A DNA stretch of 25,482 bases, taken from the IMG/VR virus record IMGVR_UViG_3300032272_000066, positions 1 to 25,482 of that record; one strand, given 5' to 3'. Positions within the stretch are counted from its first letter, which is position 1, and every line of letters starts with the position of its first letter. Source of the stretch: a virus. Lineage: Duplodnaviria > Caudoviricetes. The notes below the pieces were generated by a model. That model ran no database searches. It was given only the letters and a program-made list of their open reading frames with translations, and had not been told where the DNA came from. Both the position numbers and the translations under genes were made by a program. This document shows, piece by piece, positions 11,967 to 24,100 of this stretch.

Positions 11967-12623
11967 CTAATTAGTTGGCTTTTTTTTATAAATGAATGGT
12001 GTTTTGGTATTATGCCAATCATGGTTTATGATGTAGCTATTCCAGGGCGTGTTGTTCATTAATGTGTCCATATGGTAAACTTCACCTTTTAAGCCATGTA
12101 TAGCCATATTAATACAGCACATTTTTACGCATACATGGTCCAAATCTTGTGCTATGTAGTAATTGCCTTTACAAATTTGGTTGGCTGCTAGTAAGGTTCT
12201 GCCACTTCCTACAGCGCAATCGTTAACTTTATTGCCATAATCATCTTTTTCAACTACAAATTGCGCCATGAGGTCGCAAAGCGCTTTTGGTGTAAAGAAT
12301 TGACCAAAACCACTCTTTTTATGATTAGAGGCTAATGCTTGGTAATAATCTCCTAAAGGATCTACCCAATCATTATTTTGTATGGCGTTGTCATAAATGA
12401 TAAGTAAAGCGCCTAGAAGCTTTGCAAAATTATTTATTTCGTCTTCGTCGTATTTTCTTACTGTATCGAGATACAGCTCCTCTTGTGTTTGTCTGGCTAG
12501 GCAACAAATGACAAGAGTTAGAAAATCGTCGAAGACGCGCGACGCATCGTGTCGTCTTCCTAAAAAAGTAAAAAGGGAGTTAAACTCCCTTAAATACTGT
12601 GGCGTGTCTGTTGTTTTAAGCAT
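11967..12623 (-). CDS. N-6 DNA methylase (HsdM-like) protein lacking the catalytic NPPF motif
   Basis: Motif X GQFFTP, motif I NDCAVGSGR, QDLD and MDTL are present. The protein ends without an NPP(Y/F/W) motif. Confidence 0.85.
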   Translation of the reverse strand: MLKTTDTPQYLREFNSLFTFLGRRHDASRVFDDFLTLVICCLARQTQEELYLDTVRKYDEDEINNFAKLLGALLIIYDNAIQNNDWVDPLGDYYQALASNHKKSGFGQFFTPKALCDLMAQFVVEKDDYGNKVNDCAVGSGRTLLAANQICKGNYYIAQDLDHVCVKMCCINMAIHGLKGEVYHMDTLMNNTPWNSYIINHDWHNTKTPFIYKKKPTN

Positions 12624-12996
12624 TCTCTTTTACTTTTAATGGCTCAACTTGAGCATTACTAAAAAGATATGCTAGTGTAAAGAATTTAAATTCTCGTTCC
12701 TCGTCGCTGTTCTCGGCTTTTTCTGTTCCTACTCTTTTTTTGCTCCATACAAAAAATGCTTTAGAACCCTTTTTTACTTTAAAGCCAAGTTTTAACCATT
12801 GATGGAAATTGTTAAATTCTTGGTGTTCTTCATTTTTATACATTTCAATTAGTACAGAATTTACCGTTCTAGGTTCTGCGCTTAGTTCGATTGTTTCCTT
12901 TGCATCAAGGCTAAGAAGTTTTAATAATTGCTTTTTTTGTTCTCTTGTTTCACAGGCAAAGATTGAGCTGTGAATTGATTGTGTTAATGTTCCCAT
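12616..12996 (-). CDS. ArdC-like ssDNA-binding (N-terminal domain only) antirestriction protein
   Basis: FNNFHQWLKLGFKVKKGSKA..W and F....LFSNAQVE match the ArdC-N/DUF1738 pattern. No metalloprotease domain. Confidence 0.85.
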   Translation of the reverse strand: MGTLTQSIHSSIFACETREQKKQLLKLLSLDAKETIELSAEPRTVNSVLIEMYKNEEHQEFNNFHQWLKLGFKVKKGSKAFFVWSKKRVGTEKAENSDEEREFKFFTLAYLFSNAQVEPLKVKENA

Positions 12997-13007
12997 TGTG
13001 TAAAATT

Positions 13008-13232
13008 TTAAAAGTTATAATCTAAAAAATCGCTATTGTTTGTATTTTCCTCAATAAACATATTCGCAATACTTTGCGGAATGTTGAATGCGTCTTTGGC
13101 TTTTTCCTTAAACCAAGTATAGTCTTGATAATTAAAGACTTTTGAAAGTCCTTTTTTTTGAAGAATAGACTTTACTTGTTCGCTAATTTTAAAAGAATTA
13201 ACTTTGCTTTGGTTATTTGCTTGTGTTCTCAT
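13008..13232 (-). CDS. Hypothetical protein (74 aa)
   Basis: Tightly packed in the minus-strand operon, A-rich leader. Confidence 0.75.
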   Translation of the reverse strand: MRTQANNQSKVNSFKISEQVKSILQKKGLSKVFNYQDYTWFKEKAKDAFNIPQSIANMFIEENTNNSDFLDYNF

Positions 13233-13246
13233 TAGTAAATGAATTT

Positions 13247-13278
13247 AAAAGCCTACTACTACGAATAGTAGGCTTTTT
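13247..13278. terminator. Intrinsic terminator/attenuator inside the minus-strand operon
   Basis: AAAAGCCTACTA-ctacgaa-TAGTAGGCTTTT. Confidence 0.8.
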
Positions 13279-13282
13279 GTTG

Positions 13283-13672
13283 TTAAATAGAAAAAGTTAA
13301 AACTTCCTTTTCTGCTCTTGTTAAAGCTTCTGAAAATTCAGTTTCCACCATCAATAAAACCTTAGAAATTACTGCAGGATTTTTTAAGTTAAATGAATAA
13401 CCGTTATCGCTTCCAAATTTCATGTTTGCGTTCGTTCCGTCATTGCTTGCCATGTAGCGCGTTAACTCGTCATACTTTGAAGTCATTGCTTCGTGTTTTT
13501 CCGCAATCACTTTAAAAGTTTCTAAACGGCTAATTCTAGCTTTTGCGCTCGGGTTAATCAAATCATTGATTTTTAGAGTTGCAACAGTTTCTTTTTCCTT
13601 TTTTTCATTTAGCGGTTTAACTCCTTTTTTTGGAGCTTCTGCGGTTGGCGTTTCTCTCTTTTGTGTTCTCAT
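13283..13672 (-). CDS. Hypothetical protein (129 aa), first gene of the minus-strand island
   Basis: Disordered basic N-terminus then helical domain; downstream of a -7 box. Confidence 0.8.
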   Translation of the reverse strand: MRTQKRETPTAEAPKKGVKPLNEKKEKETVATLKINDLINPSAKARISRLETFKVIAEKHEAMTSKYDELTRYMASNDGTNANMKFGSDNGYSFNLKNPAVISKVLLMVETEFSEALTRAEKEVLTFSI

Positions 13673-17037: not shown

Positions 17038-17906
17038 TGAGTCAACCAACACACCATATAATAGAAATACCAAAAAAAGGAATTAAAAGATATATACCAA
17101 AAGAGCTAGCTTTTTGCAATGCTAAAGAATATAGCGCAATGTGTGGCCTTATATTTAAATGGCAAAATGGTACAATCAATTATGAAGAGCTAAGAGTACA
17201 GGCTGTTTATAATTTAATGGGCTTAAAACAAGGAAATCGCAAAATTAATGAACTAGAAAACGAAATATTCTTATCTAATGTTTATGAAATTTCAAAACTA
17301 ATCGATTCTTTTTTCAGACCAGCCTCAAAGGAAGGGTTGATCATCAACCAAAACTATACAAATAATCACTGTCCAACAGTACGCCCAATATTTAAAAAAC
17401 TGTATGGACCAAAAAATGAATTTGAAAACACAAGCTTTGGTCAGTATGAAGATGCTCTAAATTTGTTTCATATGTATTATGAGCATCCAAAGAAGGAGTT
17501 ATTGTATAGGTTGTTTGCAACCTATTACCTGTTCAAGGGCGAGCAGTACGACCAAAATAAAGTAGAGAAAAAAACAAAGCTATTAAAGCTCATAGATTTT
17601 AATATCATCTACGGTTTTTTTATGTTCTTTGGAAGCTTTCAAATTTACCTAACAAGTTCAACAGTGTATTATGAGGGTAAGCCAATAGACCTATCCATAC
17701 TTTTTAAAGAACCAAAAAACAAAAGCCAAAGCATTATTCCAGGACTAGGCACTAAAAGTCTAGCTTATCAATTAGCAGAAAGCGGTGTGTTTGGCGATTT
17801 AAAAAACCTACGAAAAGAAAACCTTTGGGAAATTCTATTAAGACTATATGATATTACCAAAAGAGATCTAGATCACGAAGCAAAAGAAAAAGTAAATTCA
17901 CAATAG
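17037..17906 (+). CDS. Hypothetical protein, possible tail assembly chaperone
   Basis: 289 aa; C-terminal LAESGVFG..NLWEILLRLY. Function inferred from position only. Confidence 0.6.
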   Translation: MSQPTHHIIEIPKKGIKRYIPKELAFCNAKEYSAMCGLIFKWQNGTINYEELRVQAVYNLMGLKQGNRKINELENEIFLSNVYEISKLIDSFFRPASKEGLIINQNYTNNHCPTVRPIFKKLYGPKNEFENTSFGQYEDALNLFHMYYEHPKKELLYRLFATYYLFKGEQYDQNKVEKKTKLLKLIDFNIIYGFFMFFGSFQIYLTSSTVYYEGKPIDLSILFKEPKNKSQSIIPGLGTKSLAYQLAESGVFGDLKNLRKENLWEILLRLYDITKRDLDHEAKEKVNSQ

Positions 17907-17907
17907 T

Positions 17908-18360
17908 ATGAGCAAAATTAATTGGTTTAAAGATTATCTTAAGGAAATTCAAGATGATTGTCCTGAAATTAATAAAAACAAATTAGTGGTTGATGATAGT
18001 CAACTCACAAATTATTTAGGGAGTCACAAACGGGCTGATAATATTATGCTAATTGGTGTGCTTCCGGAGTTTGGAGCTAATGCTACAAATCCAGACAATT
18101 TTTTATTAAGAGGCTCAACACTGCTTATGGTGTTAGAAAAAACAAACTATTCTAATGAGAACTATGATAGTTACTTTCAAATATTTGAAAACACATATAT
18201 TGTAGCTGAAAAAATAGTTAAAAAACTATTGTCAGATGCCACAAGGGGTTGTACTTACTTACGTTATTTACAACCACAAAGCATTCAGGTTGTACCAGTA
18301 TGGAACAAATCAGAATGCGAAGGCTGGAGCATTCAATTTAATTTTGATGCCACATTATAA
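17908..18360 (+). CDS. Hypothetical protein, possible tail terminator/completion protein
   Basis: 150 aa, alpha/beta pattern ending GWSIQFNF, size typical of tail terminators. Confidence 0.55.
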   Translation: MSKINWFKDYLKEIQDDCPEINKNKLVVDDSQLTNYLGSHKRADNIMLIGVLPEFGANATNPDNFLLRGSTLLMVLEKTNYSNENYDSYFQIFENTYIVAEKIVKKLLSDATRGCTYLRYLQPQSIQVVPVWNKSECEGWSIQFNFDATL

Positions 18361-18377
18361 AGTCGTATATTAACCGA
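18360..18377 (+). promoter_or_regulatory. Operator overlapping a -7-like box upstream of the small HTH-like gene
   Basis: AAGTCG-TATATT-AACCGA has the same half-sites and spacing as AAGTCG-GTTAAA-AACCGA at 13717-13734. Confidence 0.55.
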
Positions 18378-18391
18378 CAAATAATGTAGTT

Positions 18392-18562
18392 ATGACTGAA
18401 GCACAAATAGACGAGGCTATTGAACAAATACTAAGGTCTAAAGAACTTAAAGCAACATTAGGTATTACTAATAAGGTTGCTTATGATGTTAGAAACAGGT
18501 ATAAAAGAATGGCAAAGCTTGACATTCTATTTAAAGCAGGTAAGCTAAAAATTATTACATAA
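18392..18562 (+). CDS. Unannotated 56-aa HTH-like protein (putative small repressor)
   Basis: MTEAQIDEAIEQILRSKELKATLGITNKVAYDVRNRYKRMAKLDILFKAGKLKIIT. SKELKATLGITNKVAYDVR looks like a helix-turn-helix. Stop is 2 nt before the next ATG. Confidence 0.7.
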   Translation: MTEAQIDEAIEQILRSKELKATLGITNKVAYDVRNRYKRMAKLDILFKAGKLKIIT

Positions 18563-18564
18563 TA

Positions 18565-18954
18565 ATGAACCTACTCGACAAACGTAAATCACCAAATAAC
18601 GAAGAATTGCTTCAGCAACGCTTTATTGCAAGAATTTTACGTGAAGAAGGTGGCAACATTGACCAGGAACAAATTAAAACAATGGTATCCAGAGGCTTCT
18701 CCTCTAGCGATTGGTTTCAAGGAAGATCATTTAGTGTTAATGACACAATCCTATCATATGAACACTTAAAAAAACATAGATTTGTTGATATGTCTACAAG
18801 ACAAACCAAAAACGGTAAAATTCGTAAAGTCTCTCACCCTATTCACAACCGTATTTTATTTGCTCATGCCAATAATATTGTAAGGCGTCTCTCTTTTGAA
18901 TACACTAGCCGCATGAAAGCCATGATTATGGCAGAATTTCCTTCAAATATCTAA
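18565..18954 (+). CDS. Hypothetical protein, possible neck/tail completion protein
   Basis: Basic 129 aa with HRFVDM and IHNRILF; last gene of the tail-associated operon. Confidence 0.6.
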   Translation: MNLLDKRKSPNNEELLQQRFIARILREEGGNIDQEQIKTMVSRGFSSSDWFQGRSFSVNDTILSYEHLKKHRFVDMSTRQTKNGKIRKVSHPIHNRILFAHANNIVRRLSFEYTSRMKAMIMAEFPSNI

Positions 18955-19069
18955 ATAATATTTTTCGATAAGTTGCATATAAATTCGTTATTAGGTAATG
19001 TATTTCATCGAATAAATGTAAAGTGTTGGTTGTCAGTTAAATATTTTTTGTATAATTACGCTCTTAATT

Positions 19070-19152
19070 TACGGTTTTTCCGTAGTATTTAACAAATACG
19101 TTTTGTGTATAAAAGCATGATTTCGTGATTGTTATAAAAAACTATATATTTA
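19070..19152 (+). promoter_or_regulatory. Promoter of the moron cassette with upstream palindromic site
   Basis: TACGG-TTTTT-CCGTA (19070-19084); -7-like TATATTTA (19145-19152). Confidence 0.55.
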
Positions 19153-19265
19153 ACAAAAGTATTCTCCCTTAAGAATCTTTTTGTTGTAGTTTTTTTCTAC
19201 ACAAATACAATCCATTGCTGCTAATGACTAGGTTTTAGTCGAATGTTTAACTAAAACCCAGTATT

Positions 19266-19421
19266 ATGAAAAAAGTAATCGCAGCAGCATTGGCTGTAAC
19301 CTTATGTACAGTAATAGCTGTAACAACAGTATCATCTGAAAACGAAAACTATGCTGAAATCGACAAATCAAAAGCTAAGCCGCCTAGTCAAAACGGTAAT
19401 GGTACCAATTTCCTCGCATAA
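19266..19421 (+). CDS. Unannotated 51-aa secreted peptide precursor
   Basis: MKKVIAAALAVTLCTVIAVTTVSSENENYAEIDKSKAKPPSQNGNGTNFLA: Sec signal peptide plus short polar tail; A-rich leader tgtttaactaaaacccagtatt. Confidence 0.8.
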   Translation: MKKVIAAALAVTLCTVIAVTTVSSENENYAEIDKSKAKPPSQNGNGTNFLA

Positions 19422-19866
19422 ACGAGCTATTATATCCAAAGTAATTGGAACAGTATTTATAGTCGCGTCTGGAGCATTATTGCATCTGGACGTGATTTTT
19501 GATATTTTAGGACTAACCGTTAATAGCTTTCATGGTTGGCCAGACCAAGACACGTACATTCACTATTTAGGACAAACACTGTGTCCTTTATTTATTATCA
19601 TAGGCTTTTATCTGCGTAATTATTCTCTAGCCTTATTGGTACCACTTTTTTTTATATGCTTACAATTTTTATTCACCACGAACGAGAACATGAAAACAGA
19701 CGATGCTCTCACTTATATTTATGCCTCTGGCTTTCTTGCCATAGTTGTTGTATTAATGTTTGTTGTAAAAATTAGTATGCTAAAACTTGATGAAAGAAAG
19801 AACCAAAAAATTAAAATTATGGAAGAGCTTATTAATTTAGATCAAAAAACAAAACAAGTGTCATGA
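19351..19866 (+). CDS. 4-TM inner-membrane protein with C-terminal cytoplasmic helix (candidate peptide receptor)
   Basis: Four hydrophobic helices. Overlaps the peptide gene (start 19351 or 19399) and the next gene (ATGA). Confidence 0.8.
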   Translation: MLKSTNQKLSRLVKTVMVPISSHKRAIISKVIGTVFIVASGALLHLDVIFDILGLTVNSFHGWPDQDTYIHYLGQTLCPLFIIIGFYLRNYSLALLVPLFFICLQFLFTTNENMKTDDALTYIYASGFLAIVVVLMFVVKISMLKLDERKNQKIKIMEELINLDQKTKQVS

Positions 19867-20159
19867 GCGATAAAAACAACATTGTAGAAGCAGTTGATAA
19901 ACTAAAAACTCAATTTGATAGCAATCAAATATCCGAACCACAATTCAGGACTCAGTTATTAGAACTTTTACAAGAAGTAAACACCTTAAGTGCGGCTGAA
20001 TGGAAAGAAGAGCTCTTGTCTATAGATGAGCCAGAAAAACTTCGCAAAACTTTTACCAATGTGCTAGAGGCATATTTGTTTAGTCCATTTTCTAACAATA
20101 ACAATGAGCGCGTAAATGCACTATTGTTATTTAAGCACATCAAAAAAATATTTTATTAA
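19863..20159 (+). CDS. Small cytoplasmic helical protein (98 aa)
   Basis: Translationally coupled to the membrane protein gene. Confidence 0.75.
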   Translation: MSDKNNIVEAVDKLKTQFDSNQISEPQFRTQLLELLQEVNTLSAAEWKEELLSIDEPEKLRKTFTNVLEAYLFSPFSNNNNERVNALLLFKHIKKIFY

Positions 20160-20174
20160 TATAATTTCATAATC

Positions 20175-20702
20175 TTGAGAAATAAAGCTGTTTTCATTCT
20201 ATTCTCATTATTTTTTATAATAACTCTATCTAGCAATAGTCAAACTAACATTGAAAATGTTGTAAAAGTAGATAGCGCTTCACAACAATCACTGTATCAT
20301 AGAGGTGTTAATTGGGTGGCTACTATTTTTAAAGAGAGTAAAGAAATTTTGGTTTTATCTGATAGTACACAAGGTGTAATTAAGCTTAAACCAAGTTTTA
20401 ACTATAAGAGTAATATTGCTTACGGAAGAGAAACAACATCAAGCTATATTCCATATACTATAGATCTTTATTTAAAAGATGGCAGGTACAAATATATAAT
20501 AGCAAATTTCATACATAAAGATTTTGGCTTAATATCAGATCAAACAGAAAATCCCATCACCTCAAAAAGTCGAGCGGAACAAAAGTGGTCTAATAAAGTT
20601 TGGAAAGATCTTCAGGAAGAAGTCAAAAAACATGTAATTAACATTGAAAGCGCTCTCAGGCTTGCAATGAATAAAAAATCAGAATCAGAAAAAGACTGGT
20701 AA
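20175..20702 (+). CDS. DUF4468-like exported protein (moron)
   Basis: Signal peptide; VVKVDS..QSLY..GVNWVA..F..S..D...G and YTIDLYLKDGRYKY.I.NF.H pattern. Confidence 0.75.
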   Translation: MRNKAVFILFSLFFIITLSSNSQTNIENVVKVDSASQQSLYHRGVNWVATIFKESKEILVLSDSTQGVIKLKPSFNYKSNIAYGRETTSSYIPYTIDLYLKDGRYKYIIANFIHKDFGLISDQTENPITSKSRAEQKWSNKVWKDLQEEVKKHVINIESALRLAMNKKSESEKDW

Positions 20703-20726
20703 TTCACTTTTAATAATCCCATTCCT

Positions 20727-20873
20727 TATATTTACAGTGTCCAACACATAGAGTTTCTTATCAATGATGACAACATGGTCCTCATTATAAGGAAGCAGTT
20801 AGTACTGTAACATAGAGGAAACTCAGGTGTTGGACAGCCTTATTTGAGGGCCTTTGTTTGTATGTCCAACACC
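20727..20873 (+). ncRNA. Putative C4-like antisense RNA / riboregulatory leader
   Basis: -7-like TATATTTA (20727-34); target TGTCCAACAC (20738-47) + GAGTTTC (20751-57). Stem 20777-92/20838-52 encloses the complements GAAACTC (20818-24) and GGTGTTGGACA (20826-36). Second target TGTCCAACACC (20863-73) covers the ATG. Confidence 0.75.
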
Positions 20874-21047
20874 AAAAAAGCGATTTTATTTCGCAATAAA
20901 GAAGACCTGAAATCAATAGAAAAAATTGATATTGATGCAGGCAGTCTCTGGAAATTAAACCAGGAAACAAATCAACTTGTATTAGTTGATGATGATCAGC
21001 ACGTAACGCATGCGTTCGAGAAAAATAATTTTATTAAAGCAACTTAA
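20862..21047 (+). CDS. Small protein (61 aa) under RNA-switch control
   Basis: ATG 20862 (MSNTKKAILF...) overlaps the antisense target; followed by a terminator. Confidence 0.7.
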   Translation: MSNTKKAILFRNKEDLKSIEKIDIDAGSLWKLNQETNQLVLVDDDQHVTHAFEKNNFIKAT

Positions 21048-21052
21048 AATTT

Positions 21053-21076
21053 AAGCCGGTTAACGCTGGCTTTTTT
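21053..21076 (+). terminator. Intrinsic terminator
   Basis: AAGCCGG-ttaacg-CTGGCTT followed by TTTT. Confidence 0.8.
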
Positions 21077-21085
21077 AATGAGAAA

Positions 21086-21126
21086 AAATCACGTCACAAT
21101 TATATAGATAAGCGCACTTTACATTG
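21086..21126 (+). promoter_or_regulatory. Putative late promoter, copy 4 (tape measure operon)
   Basis: AAATCACGTCACAATT (21086-21101) + 16 nt + TTTACATTG (21118-21126); ATG at 21143. Confidence 0.8.
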
Positions 21127-21142
21127 GCTCAAAATTTAAGCC

Positions 21143-24100
21143 ATGGCTAAGCGTATTGTAGACGAAGATTTAAGGTTCAATGTCATTATTAATGGCAATG
21201 AGGCACAGTCACAGCTTTATAAGTTAGAGCAACGCAATCGTTCGCTTACTGACGCTAATAAAAACTTAAGAGCTGAGAGATCTAAATTAGAGGCTCAAGG
21301 AAAAAAGAATTCAAAGGCGTGGAAACAACTATCTACTCAAATAACTGCAAACAATAAAGAGCTTAAACAAAATCGTAGTGAAATGCGTCGTCTTCAAGAC
21401 GAAATTGGTATAACAGGTCTCACGCTTCGCCAATTAGGAAAGAAGGCGTCTTTTTTAAGGCTTCAATTAGCCAATATGTTGCCTAATGATCCTAACAGAA
21501 AAAAGCTAAAAGCAGATTTGATTGCAATTAATAGACAGATGGATAAGATGTCTGTTAAAGCATCTATGGCGCAGTCTGGTATTTCAAAACTTGCAATGGG
21601 CTTCAATAAATATTTTGCGTTAGGAGCTTCAGTAATTGCTACAGGAGCAGGTATTGTGCTTTCGTTACAAAAAATGATTGACTATAACGGGAAGCTTTCA
21701 GATGCACAATCCGATGTTCAAAAAACAACAGGGCTTACTAAAAAAGAAGTTGACGAGCTTACAAAATCATTTGGAGCGCTTAAAACAAGAACAGCGCGTG
21801 TGGAGTTGTTAGAACTTGCAGAAGAAGCTGGGCGTTTAGGCATTGAAGGAGCAAAAAATGTTCAGGATTTTGTGAATACTGCTAATGAGCTTAAAGTAGC
21901 ACTTGGTGACGATTTATCAACTGAGCAAATTCGTGAAGTTGGTAAAATGGCAAAAGTATATGGAGTTGCAGCAAAAAACAATCTTACTTATGCAGAATCT
22001 TTTCAGGCTATAGGTTCTGCAATCAACGAAGTTTCAGCCTCAGGGGAAAATCAAGCAGGCTTTTTGGTCGATTATTTAAAGCGCACAGCTGGTATTAGCA
22101 AACAAGCCAATATCTCAGCCGAACAAAACATAGGGTTTGCAGCAACCTTTGACGAAATTGGAACTAGTGTTGAAATTGCAGGAACTGCAATGAACAAAGT
22201 CCTCCTAGATATGTTTGAGAATTCAAAGGAGTATGCTAAAATAGCCGGAATGTCTGAAAAGGCATTTAATACGTTACTACAATCAGACGCTAATGAAGCC
22301 GTTATAAAATTTCTTGAAGGCTTAAATAAAGGAGGTGAAGGTTTGGCTCCAATGGTAAAACGTCTTGATGAAATTGACGTTGGTGGCACCAGAGGTAAGG
22401 CTGCGCTGACTGCTTTGGCTGGAGCTACAGATTTATTACGTACAAAACAACTTCTAGCTGCAGATGCGCTTAAGCTAAATATATCACTTACAGATGAGTA
22501 CAAATTAAAAAACAATAATTTAGCGGCTTCTATTAAAAAAATACAAAAGCGCCTTATAGGAACTTTTACTTCAGAGAGAGTGGTAAAAGGACTAACAAAT
22601 TTTGTCGAGTGGTTTGCTAAATTTATTGGAGCTAGTGAAGATGCAGACGGAAAAGTAACCAGGTTTCGTAACCGTTTAGTTAATTTGCTTAAAACTATTA
22701 TTATTATTACAGCTGCTGTCTTAGCCTACAGAACAGCAACAAAATTAACAGCATTATGGACTAACAACGCTTATCAAGCAACAAAGCTCTATAATTTAAT
22801 TTTAAAAATAACTTCAGTTACAACCAATGTTTTAAAAGGCGGTACATTACTATTAAAAGCGGCTTACTATTTAGTTACGGGTCAAATTAAAAAAGCTGCA
22901 GCAGCAATGCGCTTGTTTAACATGATCACCAAGCTAAGTCCTATAGGTTTAATTCTAGGTCTTGTTGCGGCTTTAGGTACAGCCTATTTATTGTTTTCTG
23001 AAAACTCTAAAAAAGCATATTCAGCTCAAAAGCAAATGAATGATGCTATTAAAGACGCAAACATTCAAACTGCAGCTGAAGAAAATGCGCTGAGGCAATT
23101 ACTAAAAGTAGCTCAAGATGAAACCAGAACAAAGCAAGAACGTCAAAAGGCAATTGATGAGCTTAACAAAAAAGTTCCAGAGTATAACAATAATCTTTCA
23201 TTAGAAGCTATAAATACAAAAGAAGCTTCAAAACAGCTTGATACTTATATTGAAAAAATCAAAGCTGCAGCACGCGAGAAATTCTTTAAATCTTTAGTAG
23301 ACAAAAAAGCTGAAGAATTAGCAGCAGCAGAAGCATCCTCATTAGAGGATAATCTTAATTGGTGGGACAAAACAGTTGTGACAGTAAAATCCTTTGGAAG
23401 TTTAAGTTTACAGGCAGTAAATTCAACACAAAGAGCATTGAAAAATCAAGCTGAAACGGTTGCTAAACTTAATCAAGAACTTGAAAATGCCAATAAAAAC
23501 TATCAAAAACAAAAAGAATTAAATGGAGATTCTGGTAGTAAGCCTGATGGACCAAATGAAGGTGATACACAGGTAATCAATGGCATTACATTTATTTTCA
23601 AAAACGGAAAATGGAAAGCACTTAAACCAATTGGTGGAGGTGGTTCTGGTGGAAATAAAAAGAAAATCACTCAAGCAAAAAAAGAGGCAGAAGCTTTATT
23701 GAAGCTTCAGAGGGATACTGAGGATAATAGAATTGCATTAATTAACGATGCTTTTGAGCGTGAAATGAAGCAAGCAGAAGCCAATCATCGTCGTAAAATT
23801 GAAGACCTGAAAGCGAAGCTTATTTCTCAATCTGAAATAGACAAAGCTACTAATGCAGGAAATACAGATTTAGCAGCTATTTACACTAAACAAAATAGTG
23901 AAATCCAAGCGCAAATTTTACAACAAGAACAATTGCATCAGCAATCTCTTAATAAAATTTTAGATTCAGGCATTCAAGATCATATCAATAAACAAATTAA
24001 GCAATTCAATCGTGAACAGCAAGAGCGTTTAACAGCTCACAATAATGAATTAGCAGCACTTGGAGAAAATGAGGAGGCAAAAAAGGAGCTCTCAGATAAA

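Follow-up and report, generated by a model that had tools for sequence, protein, structure and literature searches.

A conserved cassette of export-tagged propeptide, four-pass membrane protein and small partner in Flavobacteriaceae and their phages: a candidate kinase-free peptide switch

Introduction

Phages of Bacillota are known to communicate by peptides, which they sense with cytosolic TPR receptors, and peptide quorum sensing has been found mainly in Gram-positive bacteria. Three small genes carried by a phage of a Gram-negative host raise the question of whether a peptide signal could be sensed at the membrane there, and whether such a system would belong to the phage at all. The window, by which we mean the whole stretch of 25,482 nucleotides analysed (IMG/VR record IMGVR_UViG_3300032272_000066), covers that half of a temperate flavobacterial phage genome which encodes lysis, head and tail functions, as judged from amidase, head protease and tape-measure matches. 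An initial annotation had read the three genes as a membrane-sensed, kinase-free module of the phage.

Results

Organisation of the cassette

The ORF list of the window agrees with the initial annotation on the three ORFs, on the overlap of the first two and on the ATGA that couples the last two (Table 1). The gene for the four-transmembrane (4-TM) protein lies in the +1 frame and overlaps the peptide gene by 71 nt. The N-terminus of the propeptide is basic, and a hydrophobic stretch was located, by hydropathy only, at roughly residues 3–24. Positions 17500–22500 are spanned unbroken and without differences by one DNA run, which is possibly the source of the window itself.

Table 1. Features of the cassette and its immediate surroundings (window coordinates)
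Feature	Position	Strand	Remarks
Bacteroidota sigma-70 -7 box, likely	19229..19236	+	One mismatch; 37 nt before the peptide ATG; position of the box in homologues
Imperfect inverted repeat, 10-8-10	19231..19258	.	10-bp arms, 1 mismatch
51-aa propeptide	19266..19421	+	Sec-type signal without lipobox, short acidic linker, IDKSKAKPPSQNG at residues 32-44
4-TM inner-membrane protein, candidate peptide receptor	19351..19866	+	171 aa (155 aa from ATG 19399)
98-aa cytoplasmic partner, candidate transducer/anti-repressor	19863..20159	+	N-terminal SHOCT-like helical hairpin; ATGA-coupled to 4-TM gene
Exported DUF4468 protein	20175..20702	+	Pfam PF14730, E 2.5e-9; same slot in phage 6H

The cassette had also been credited with its own promoter and a palindromic site. 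The Bacteroidota -7 box has the consensus TAnnTTTG, no exact copy of which occurs on the + strand in the gap before the peptide gene. In the homologous loci an exact box was present in 25/58 and a relaxed one in 45/58, compared with 5% and 9% of random windows; a scan for enteric-type sigma-70 promoters stayed at chance level. The promoter was thus corroborated by a box position shared with the homologues, with one mismatch. The palindrome is real as a structure (fold z -2.6; 3/200 shuffles equally stable), but it did not stand as a regulatory site, because one arm coincides with the T-rich -7 box and the other with the A-rich start region. It may be a by-product of pairing between these two segments and is probably not an independent operator.

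Distribution of the family

A word-index search returned a single receptor homologue of 57% identity, in another assembly, and a profile search of 1.84 billion representatives returned 87 clusters with 4-TM homologues. Loci for comparison came from IMG/VR (7), GTDB (24) and profile searches of 401 Flavobacteriaceae genomes; after removal of duplicates (identical C-termini, plus L020 and L021), 60 were kept, the window included. With the best nine candidates per genome scored, at least 148 of the 401 Flavobacteriaceae genomes match the 4-TM profile at E<=0.001, and the scores of these candidates are bimodal, with 19 strong matches in 15 genomes followed by a tail of weak ones. Sixteen further matches were inspected (15 weak and one other), and 14 of them stand directly behind tsaE and a gene for a PglZ-domain response regulator, which we take to be PorX. 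Most of these 14 precede an alanine dehydrogenase gene (ald). These chromosomal copies form one clade (100/100), and the window receptor falls on the mobile side of the tree, near P0002, P0003, L058 and L060. A phylum-wide sample yielded matches in 10/401 genomes, eight of which were already in the Flavobacteriaceae set.

The chromosomal pair of peptide and 4-TM protein is widespread in Flavobacteriaceae at porX-tsaE-ald (L049, L065-L079, L089-L093, L097, L099), and it is possible that this pair is a host quorum-sensing or secretion-linked system. Genes with a double 4-TM domain (370-440 aa) occur around porX-tsaE in L098, L102-L105, L107, L108 and L111. By eye, they often stand tail-to-tail with a conserved HTH-like gene of 122-141 aa, two of which were scanned in Pfam and gave no match. 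An HlyD-like export gene, recognised by eye and without a Pfam match, lies near L098 and L050. The view that the module is specific to phages had to be given up, since a paralogue occurs on the chromosomes of many Flavobacteriaceae and many of the repressor-linked copies form chromosomal islets.

The propeptide is conserved and under selection

A short export-tagged ORF was present upstream of the 4-TM gene in all 59 other non-redundant loci (55 found by script, 4 by eye). The absence of such an ORF from homologues had been named in the initial annotation as grounds for abandoning the idea, and no locus lacked it. The same peptide filter was positive for 11/194 other genes in those loci, and a loose form of the motif was found in 48/60 peptide loci compared with 2/194 control genes. 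A peptide profile trained without the window placed the 51-aa ORF first among 226 window ORFs (E 5e-8). Across the 60 loci the propeptides are 45-103 aa long, the 51 aa of the window lying within the 10-100 aa used as the RRNPP criterion. Peptide and receptor genes overlap in 55/60 loci, and in the other five they lie no more than 100 nt apart, counted from the ORF's first start.

The peptides end in a recognisable motif that differs between groups. The mobile-clade consensus is [VI]-D-[KR]-x-K-I-x-R-P-G-x-Q-G, the chromosomal-clade end is looser (D-K...K...P...G), and four viral loci carry an end of the form GGDP...PP[KR]R. There were 38 distinct 11-residue motifs among 40 loci, tandem copies in 6/60 peptides (by pattern), and at L109 three peptide-receptor pairs in tandem, the motif differing from pair to pair. 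The peptides would be short, polar and charged in their mature form, and the window motif has three lysines. A strict motif pattern occurred at five places in 3/301 genomes, all at 4-TM loci; the occurrence of IDK/PP/NG-type peptides beside other membrane sensors, proposed in the initial annotation, was accordingly not borne out by this one pattern in these 301 genomes.

The export tags also vary. A lipobox is present in 50/60 peptides, and in 45 the cysteine is followed by an acidic stretch that resembles the Bacteroidota surface-export signal as given in the available part of PMC5080379. The window, L058 and L060 peptides have a plain signal without lipobox, and at L094:1951-2103 the same cassette has a peptide with a double-glycine leader in place of a Sec or lipoprotein signal.

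Peptide pN/pS was below 1 in 14/14 pairs, with a pooled value of 0.42, although the protein-guided alignment favours low values in distant pairs; close pairs gave 0.09-0.35. Third codon positions under the invariant motif residues vary freely, which indicates that selection acts on the peptide frame. For the same reason we rejected the explanation that the motif is conserved merely through the overlapping receptor frame.

The four-pass protein carries a probable input domain

The AlphaFold2 model of the 155-aa form (pLDDT 95.4) has helices at residues 6-28, 30-37, 50-71, 76-94 and 103-154, i.e. four predicted membrane passes and a long, predicted cytoplasmic tail helix. Homologous receptors are mostly 140-230 aa long (155-171 aa in the window). 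Across 45 homologues the N-terminus, middle loop and tail are basic and the two outward loops are acidic, with means of 3.4 and 2.9 D/E; this pattern indicates that both termini face the cytoplasm (N-in, C-in) and that the outer face is acidic.

The strongest evidence for the role of the membrane domain comes from its fusions. It is fused to an AraC HTH_18 domain in P0014 (E 7e-12) and to a PF06580 histidine kinase in two genes (E 1e-13 and 7e-16), which are adjacent complete LytS-type genes at L106:909-3113 (G136:C12) scoring 55 and 62 bits against the family profile. Because the domain is joined to both histidine kinases and AraC, we regard it as an input or sensor domain. Neither a peptide gene nor a response regulator gene adjoins the two G136 kinase fusions, so that this locus is peptide-less. 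Searches for longer homologues, weak by the tool's own account, gave no further fusions.

No family in PHROGs, Pfam, NCBIfam or PADLOC matched the peptide or the 4-TM protein beyond generic or sub-threshold matches, and Pfam gave no TPR match in the 4-TM protein. Comparison of the 4-TM model with the PDB by Foldseek and with a viral library returned nothing usable, from which novelty of the fold does not follow; VIA-align matches were confined to coiled coils aligned with the tail (best Z 6.3). Three Bacteroidota clusters of the ESM Atlas match the 4-TM protein.

Databases start the membrane protein at ATG 19399. With loci that are not independent, the +1 frame contained 3 stops in 840 codons across the motif compared with 149 in 1200 in the signal part, and stop-making Val-Asp and Ile-Asp codon pairs occurred in 0/40 cases in the motif compared with 50% and 36% elsewhere. 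This protection of the +1 frame suggests that the motif is dual-coded with the N-terminal tail of the receptor, and the start at 19351 consequently appears more likely than that at 19399; a fusion of the two products by frameshifting is a possible alternative.

Joint divergence of motif and receptor

Two Tenacibaculum loci, L019 and L024, are 99% identical upstream and 97% identical in the signal and linker, and then fall to 61% in the motif part, where there is a gap, and to 64% in the membrane part, in what is one pair only. Identity rises again downstream (tail 81%, partner 88%, repressor 85%). As read from these two sequences, the motif and the membrane part of the receptor have diverged jointly as a block.

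Across 29 loci, identity of the motif end correlated with identity of the receptor (rho 0.52; partial 0.50, 0/2000 permutations), although linkage, common descent and dual coding of the overlap confound this co-variation. With the receptor held fixed, the value for motif end and partner in the 29 loci was 0.01. The same analysis gave a weak partial value of 0.12 (p 0.01) for partner and repressor.

The small partner and the convergent repressor-like gene

A small ORF is coupled behind the receptor gene in 38/43 mobile-clade loci, compared with 0/16 chromosomal-clade loci. These partner ORFs are diverse, many beginning with a SHOCT-like hairpin, and are under purifying selection (pN/pS 0.38). 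A profile of the downstream small ORFs, built without the window, ranked the 98-aa ORF first among the non-training ORFs in a set of 3665, with a weak E value of 0.013. Among 260 sequences the partner profile gave its top ranks, again weakly (E 0.013 and 0.019), to the extensions at the C-termini of receptors P0041 and P0031. The model of the 98-aa protein (pLDDT 70.7) is confident in the helical hairpin at residues 5-39. Its comparison with the PDB gave nothing usable, which does not make the fold new, and the ESM Atlas held no usable match for the partner. Pfam gave no match for the window protein, one partner homologue matched PF22746 at E 6e-4 with 19.7 bits, short of the curated cut-off, 27, and no family beyond generic or sub-threshold matches was found for the partner in PHROGs, Pfam, NCBIfam and PADLOC. 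No LytTR domain was detected in the 98-aa protein or in the five partners and five repressors scanned.

In 29/43 mobile-clade loci the cassette is followed tail-to-tail by a convergent short ORF of 118-188 aa, and 28 of these 29 ORFs match PHROG regulator or HTH families, with mixed HTH types. The stop codons of partner and repressor lie -16 to +36 nt apart in all 29. Five convergent repressors scanned in Pfam contained no S24 peptidase, for which the lengths leave little room. All seven viral loci stand tail-to-tail with a cI-like gene, followed by divergent cro-like or early genes, an arrangement that fits lysis-lysogeny control; a Mu-type transposase lies further along in L012, L014 and L025. 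Many repressor-linked copies are islets flanked by housekeeping genes, and no phage gene was noticed in the surrounding 2 kb or so. The convergent ORF is absent from 14/43 mobile-clade loci, four of which end within 500 nt, and L058 and L060, the closest located relatives of the window receptor, have neither partner nor repressor. We found no sign of a shared operator, cassette and repressor promoters having 10-mers in common in 3/26 loci compared with 17% of unrelated pairs.

The window copy occupies a late cargo slot

The 569-aa terminase-like protein of the window shares 48-52% identity with proteins of Flavobacterium phages laban6-1, 1H and 6H. In phage 6H (Duneviridae, Unahavirus), a DUF4468 gene and a single small ORF occupy the slot preceding the tape-measure gene, and the window cassette lies in the late cargo slot of this 6H-like phage. 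The DUF4468 protein of the window is probably a neighbour in the slot, outside the core module, and by eye DUF4468-looking ORFs occur near the cassette in L013, L016, L018 and L036. By eye, the cassette was not found in the cargo slot of any of 11 IMG/VR relatives, retrieved via a flanking 129-aa gene, and the content of the slot is changing cargo. A profile search found the 4-TM gene nowhere in five complete related phages. The cassette is therefore accessory in the 6H-like group. No close loci for the window's own three proteins were found in IMG/VR, GenBank phages or JGI metagenomes, and no repressor-like gene adjoins the cassette within the window.

Other features of this region were noted in passing. 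Positions 20703-21047 hold a short or broken remnant (weak phrog_38077, with an in-frame stop upstream of a 67-aa ORF), whose counterpart in relatives is an ORF of 130-180 aa directly before the tape-measure gene, and a terminator-like hairpin at 21053-21080 closes the slot ahead of that gene. In related phages the slot can hold a HicAB-like pair (L005:6564-7202 and L008:7452-8144, by eye). An inverted island in the late region, at 11967-13672 on the minus strand, comprises an N6 methyltransferase, an ArdC-N anti-restriction-like gene and phrog_19224; phage 6H also has an inverted island at the equivalent place.

Discussion

The cassette is real and conserved and apparently undescribed in print: no publication describing it was found among the titles and abstract openings of largely open-access papers. 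The terms Gram-negative, Bacteroid and Flavobacter are unmentioned in the available text of a 2026 phage-communication review (PMC13389391) and a 2026 arbitrium paper (PMC13220667). Where the initial annotation had proposed a membrane-sensed kinase-free module, the conserved exported propeptide, the 4-TM protein and the partner were borne out, and the phage specificity and a repressor beside the window copy were not.

We lean, on balance, towards reading the cassette as a kinase-free, membrane-sensed peptide switch acting on an HTH repressor. Processing of the exported propeptide would leave its C-terminal motif, and this motif peptide would bind the acidic outward loops of the 4-TM protein. 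Binding would shift the small partner between a membrane-held and a freed state, and the freed partner would act on the HTH repressor as an anti-repressor. We infer export, processing, binding, partner sequestration and anti-repression from the anatomy of the locus and its evolutionary signatures. In prophages whose cassette abuts a cI-like gene, peptide density would then govern induction or lysogeny, as it does in arbitrium with unrelated components. Since the window copy occupies a late cargo slot, we would expect its target in trans: either this phage's repressor, encoded beyond the window, or an element that belongs to the host or is co-resident. One point against the switch is that a peptide arriving from outside has to pass the outer membrane before it can meet a receptor in the inner one. 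The neighbourhood of the cassette encodes no importer; SusCD-type peptide importers are a possible route.

More tentatively, and at rather less than even confidence, the cassettes could be parts of a Flavobacteriales-wide peptide signalling system with a new receptor domain. The host copy would sit behind porX-tsaE, and lambdoid and Mu-like prophages and islets would wire the same sensor, via a small anti-repressor, to repressors without an SOS-cleavable domain. The outcome would be a dialect-specific lysis-lysogeny channel in which dual coding interlocks the signal and receptor genes.

The outer-membrane problem would vanish if the peptide acted in cis, as a reporter of the same cell's envelope or export machinery that meets the 4-TM protein and triggers the switch when it stalls in outer-membrane transit, a logic like that of RcsF-IgaA. 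A double-glycine export route bypasses the periplasm, which does not suit such a reporter, and the use of three export tags (lipobox, plain signal and double-glycine) is hard to explain by it. It does agree with the chromosomal copy behind porX-tsaE and with the 50/60 lipoprotein-type peptides, 45 of them with an acidic stretch like the surface-export signal described in the available part of PMC5080379. The diversity of motifs, the joint divergence of the receptor and the tandem motifs are difficult to reconcile with any private tether, and we consider surveillance in cis unlikely. A small exported peptide with a co-varying membrane protein is also the layout of a bacteriocin and its immunity protein, and lambda has rexB beside cI; the cassette might thus serve toxin-immunity, abortive infection or superinfection exclusion, with either a bacteriocin-like peptide and 4-TM immunity or a RexB-like 4-TM effector held off by peptide and partner. 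The variable cargo that the window slot holds in relatives, such as exported proteins and the HicAB-like pair (by eye), points the same way. Yet the mature peptides, being short, polar and charged, are unlike membrane-active bacteriocins, and none of 11 proteins matched a PADLOC 2.0 family at E 0.01. Moreover, kinases and AraC use the membrane domain as their input, and one conserved clade occupies a chromosomal housekeeping locus. We judge a killing or defensive role improbable.

An RNA-level mechanism, in which the peptide-receptor pair controls read-through, the cassette transcript is an antisense silencer of the convergent repressor and the small ORF is secondary, would account for the narrow stop-to-stop spacing in 29/29 loci, with its little room for a terminator, and would tolerate the mix of repressor HTH types. 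It seems very unlikely to us, given that the small ORF is under purifying selection, resembles the C-terminal extensions of two receptors and is intact in the window, where there is no convergent gene. A different question is whether the window copy still controls the phage life cycle or is cargo displaced from a host islet or another prophage, either neutral or jamming or eavesdropping on host signalling; this would be compatible with a real sensor family. The late slot, the lack of an adjacent repressor, the absence from 11/11 related slots (by eye) and 5/5 complete relatives (profile) and the lack of a close homologue in IMG/VR, GenBank phages and JGI metagenomes all speak for displacement. 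However, the three frames are intact, as are their overlap geometry and the promoter box, and another assembly holds the 57% identical receptor; displacement strikes us as rather unlikely.

Should the switch reading be right, phage peptide communication and peptide quorum sensing would both reach into Bacteroidota by an independent route, through a pair of peptide and membrane receptor common to flavobacterial chromosomes and the immunity regions of prophages. The pair would add a sensor domain family absent from all libraries searched, and would hint at how a prophage whose repressor is not cleavable decides on induction. Marine and soil flavobacteria drive the turnover of bloom organic matter, and in phages the cassette possibly controls host killing versus dormancy.

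Comparison with known systems

With arbitrium (AimP-AimR-AimX) and the RRNPP systems the cassette shares a small propeptide, here predicted to be exported, beside a candidate receptor gene and a third element downstream; with arbitrium it also shares temperate phages, a place near lysogeny control, varied peptides and tandem copies, the last described for RRNPPA propeptides in the available part of PMC11343458. RRNPP receptors are delimited, in the part of PMC10075063 available, as cytosolic proteins of 250-500 aa with TPRs, whereas the receptor here is a 4-TM protein of 150-210 aa without TPRs. Because it is too short and lacks TPRs, the cassette is, on its predicted proteins, not a member of RRNPP/arbitrium. 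It further differs from arbitrium in its Gram-negative host, in the lipoprotein type of most propeptides and in having the peptide gene first and overlapping the receptor gene.

ComX-ComP-ComA, Agr and ComCDE/Blp likewise have a membrane receptor for an exported peptide (binding being a candidate function here) and a co-varying peptide-sensor block. One double-glycine leader and the occurrence of the same membrane domain on LytS-type kinases add to the likeness with peptide two-component systems. In contrast to these, the cassette has no kinase or response regulator, and its output apparently runs through a small, helical partner and an XRE-type repressor in convergent orientation.

Kinase-free signalling through a membrane protein, predicted here, is known from the LytTR Regulatory Systems HdrRM and BrsRM, for which the available part of PMC6193735 proposes that the membrane protein keeps a cytoplasmic regulator in an inactive state. 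The cassette differs in lacking LytTR, in having its own peptide gene and a separate partner, and in a regulator that is convergent rather than co-transcribed. Two phage systems also come to mind: lambda RexAB places a 4-TM protein near cI, and in T4 lysis inhibition the RI-T-RIII trio of periplasmic, membrane and cytoplasmic proteins senses an outside cue. We found no sequence or fold match to either, and the cassette is set apart from them by its opposite orientation to cI, its wide chromosomal occurrence and its sensor-type fusions.
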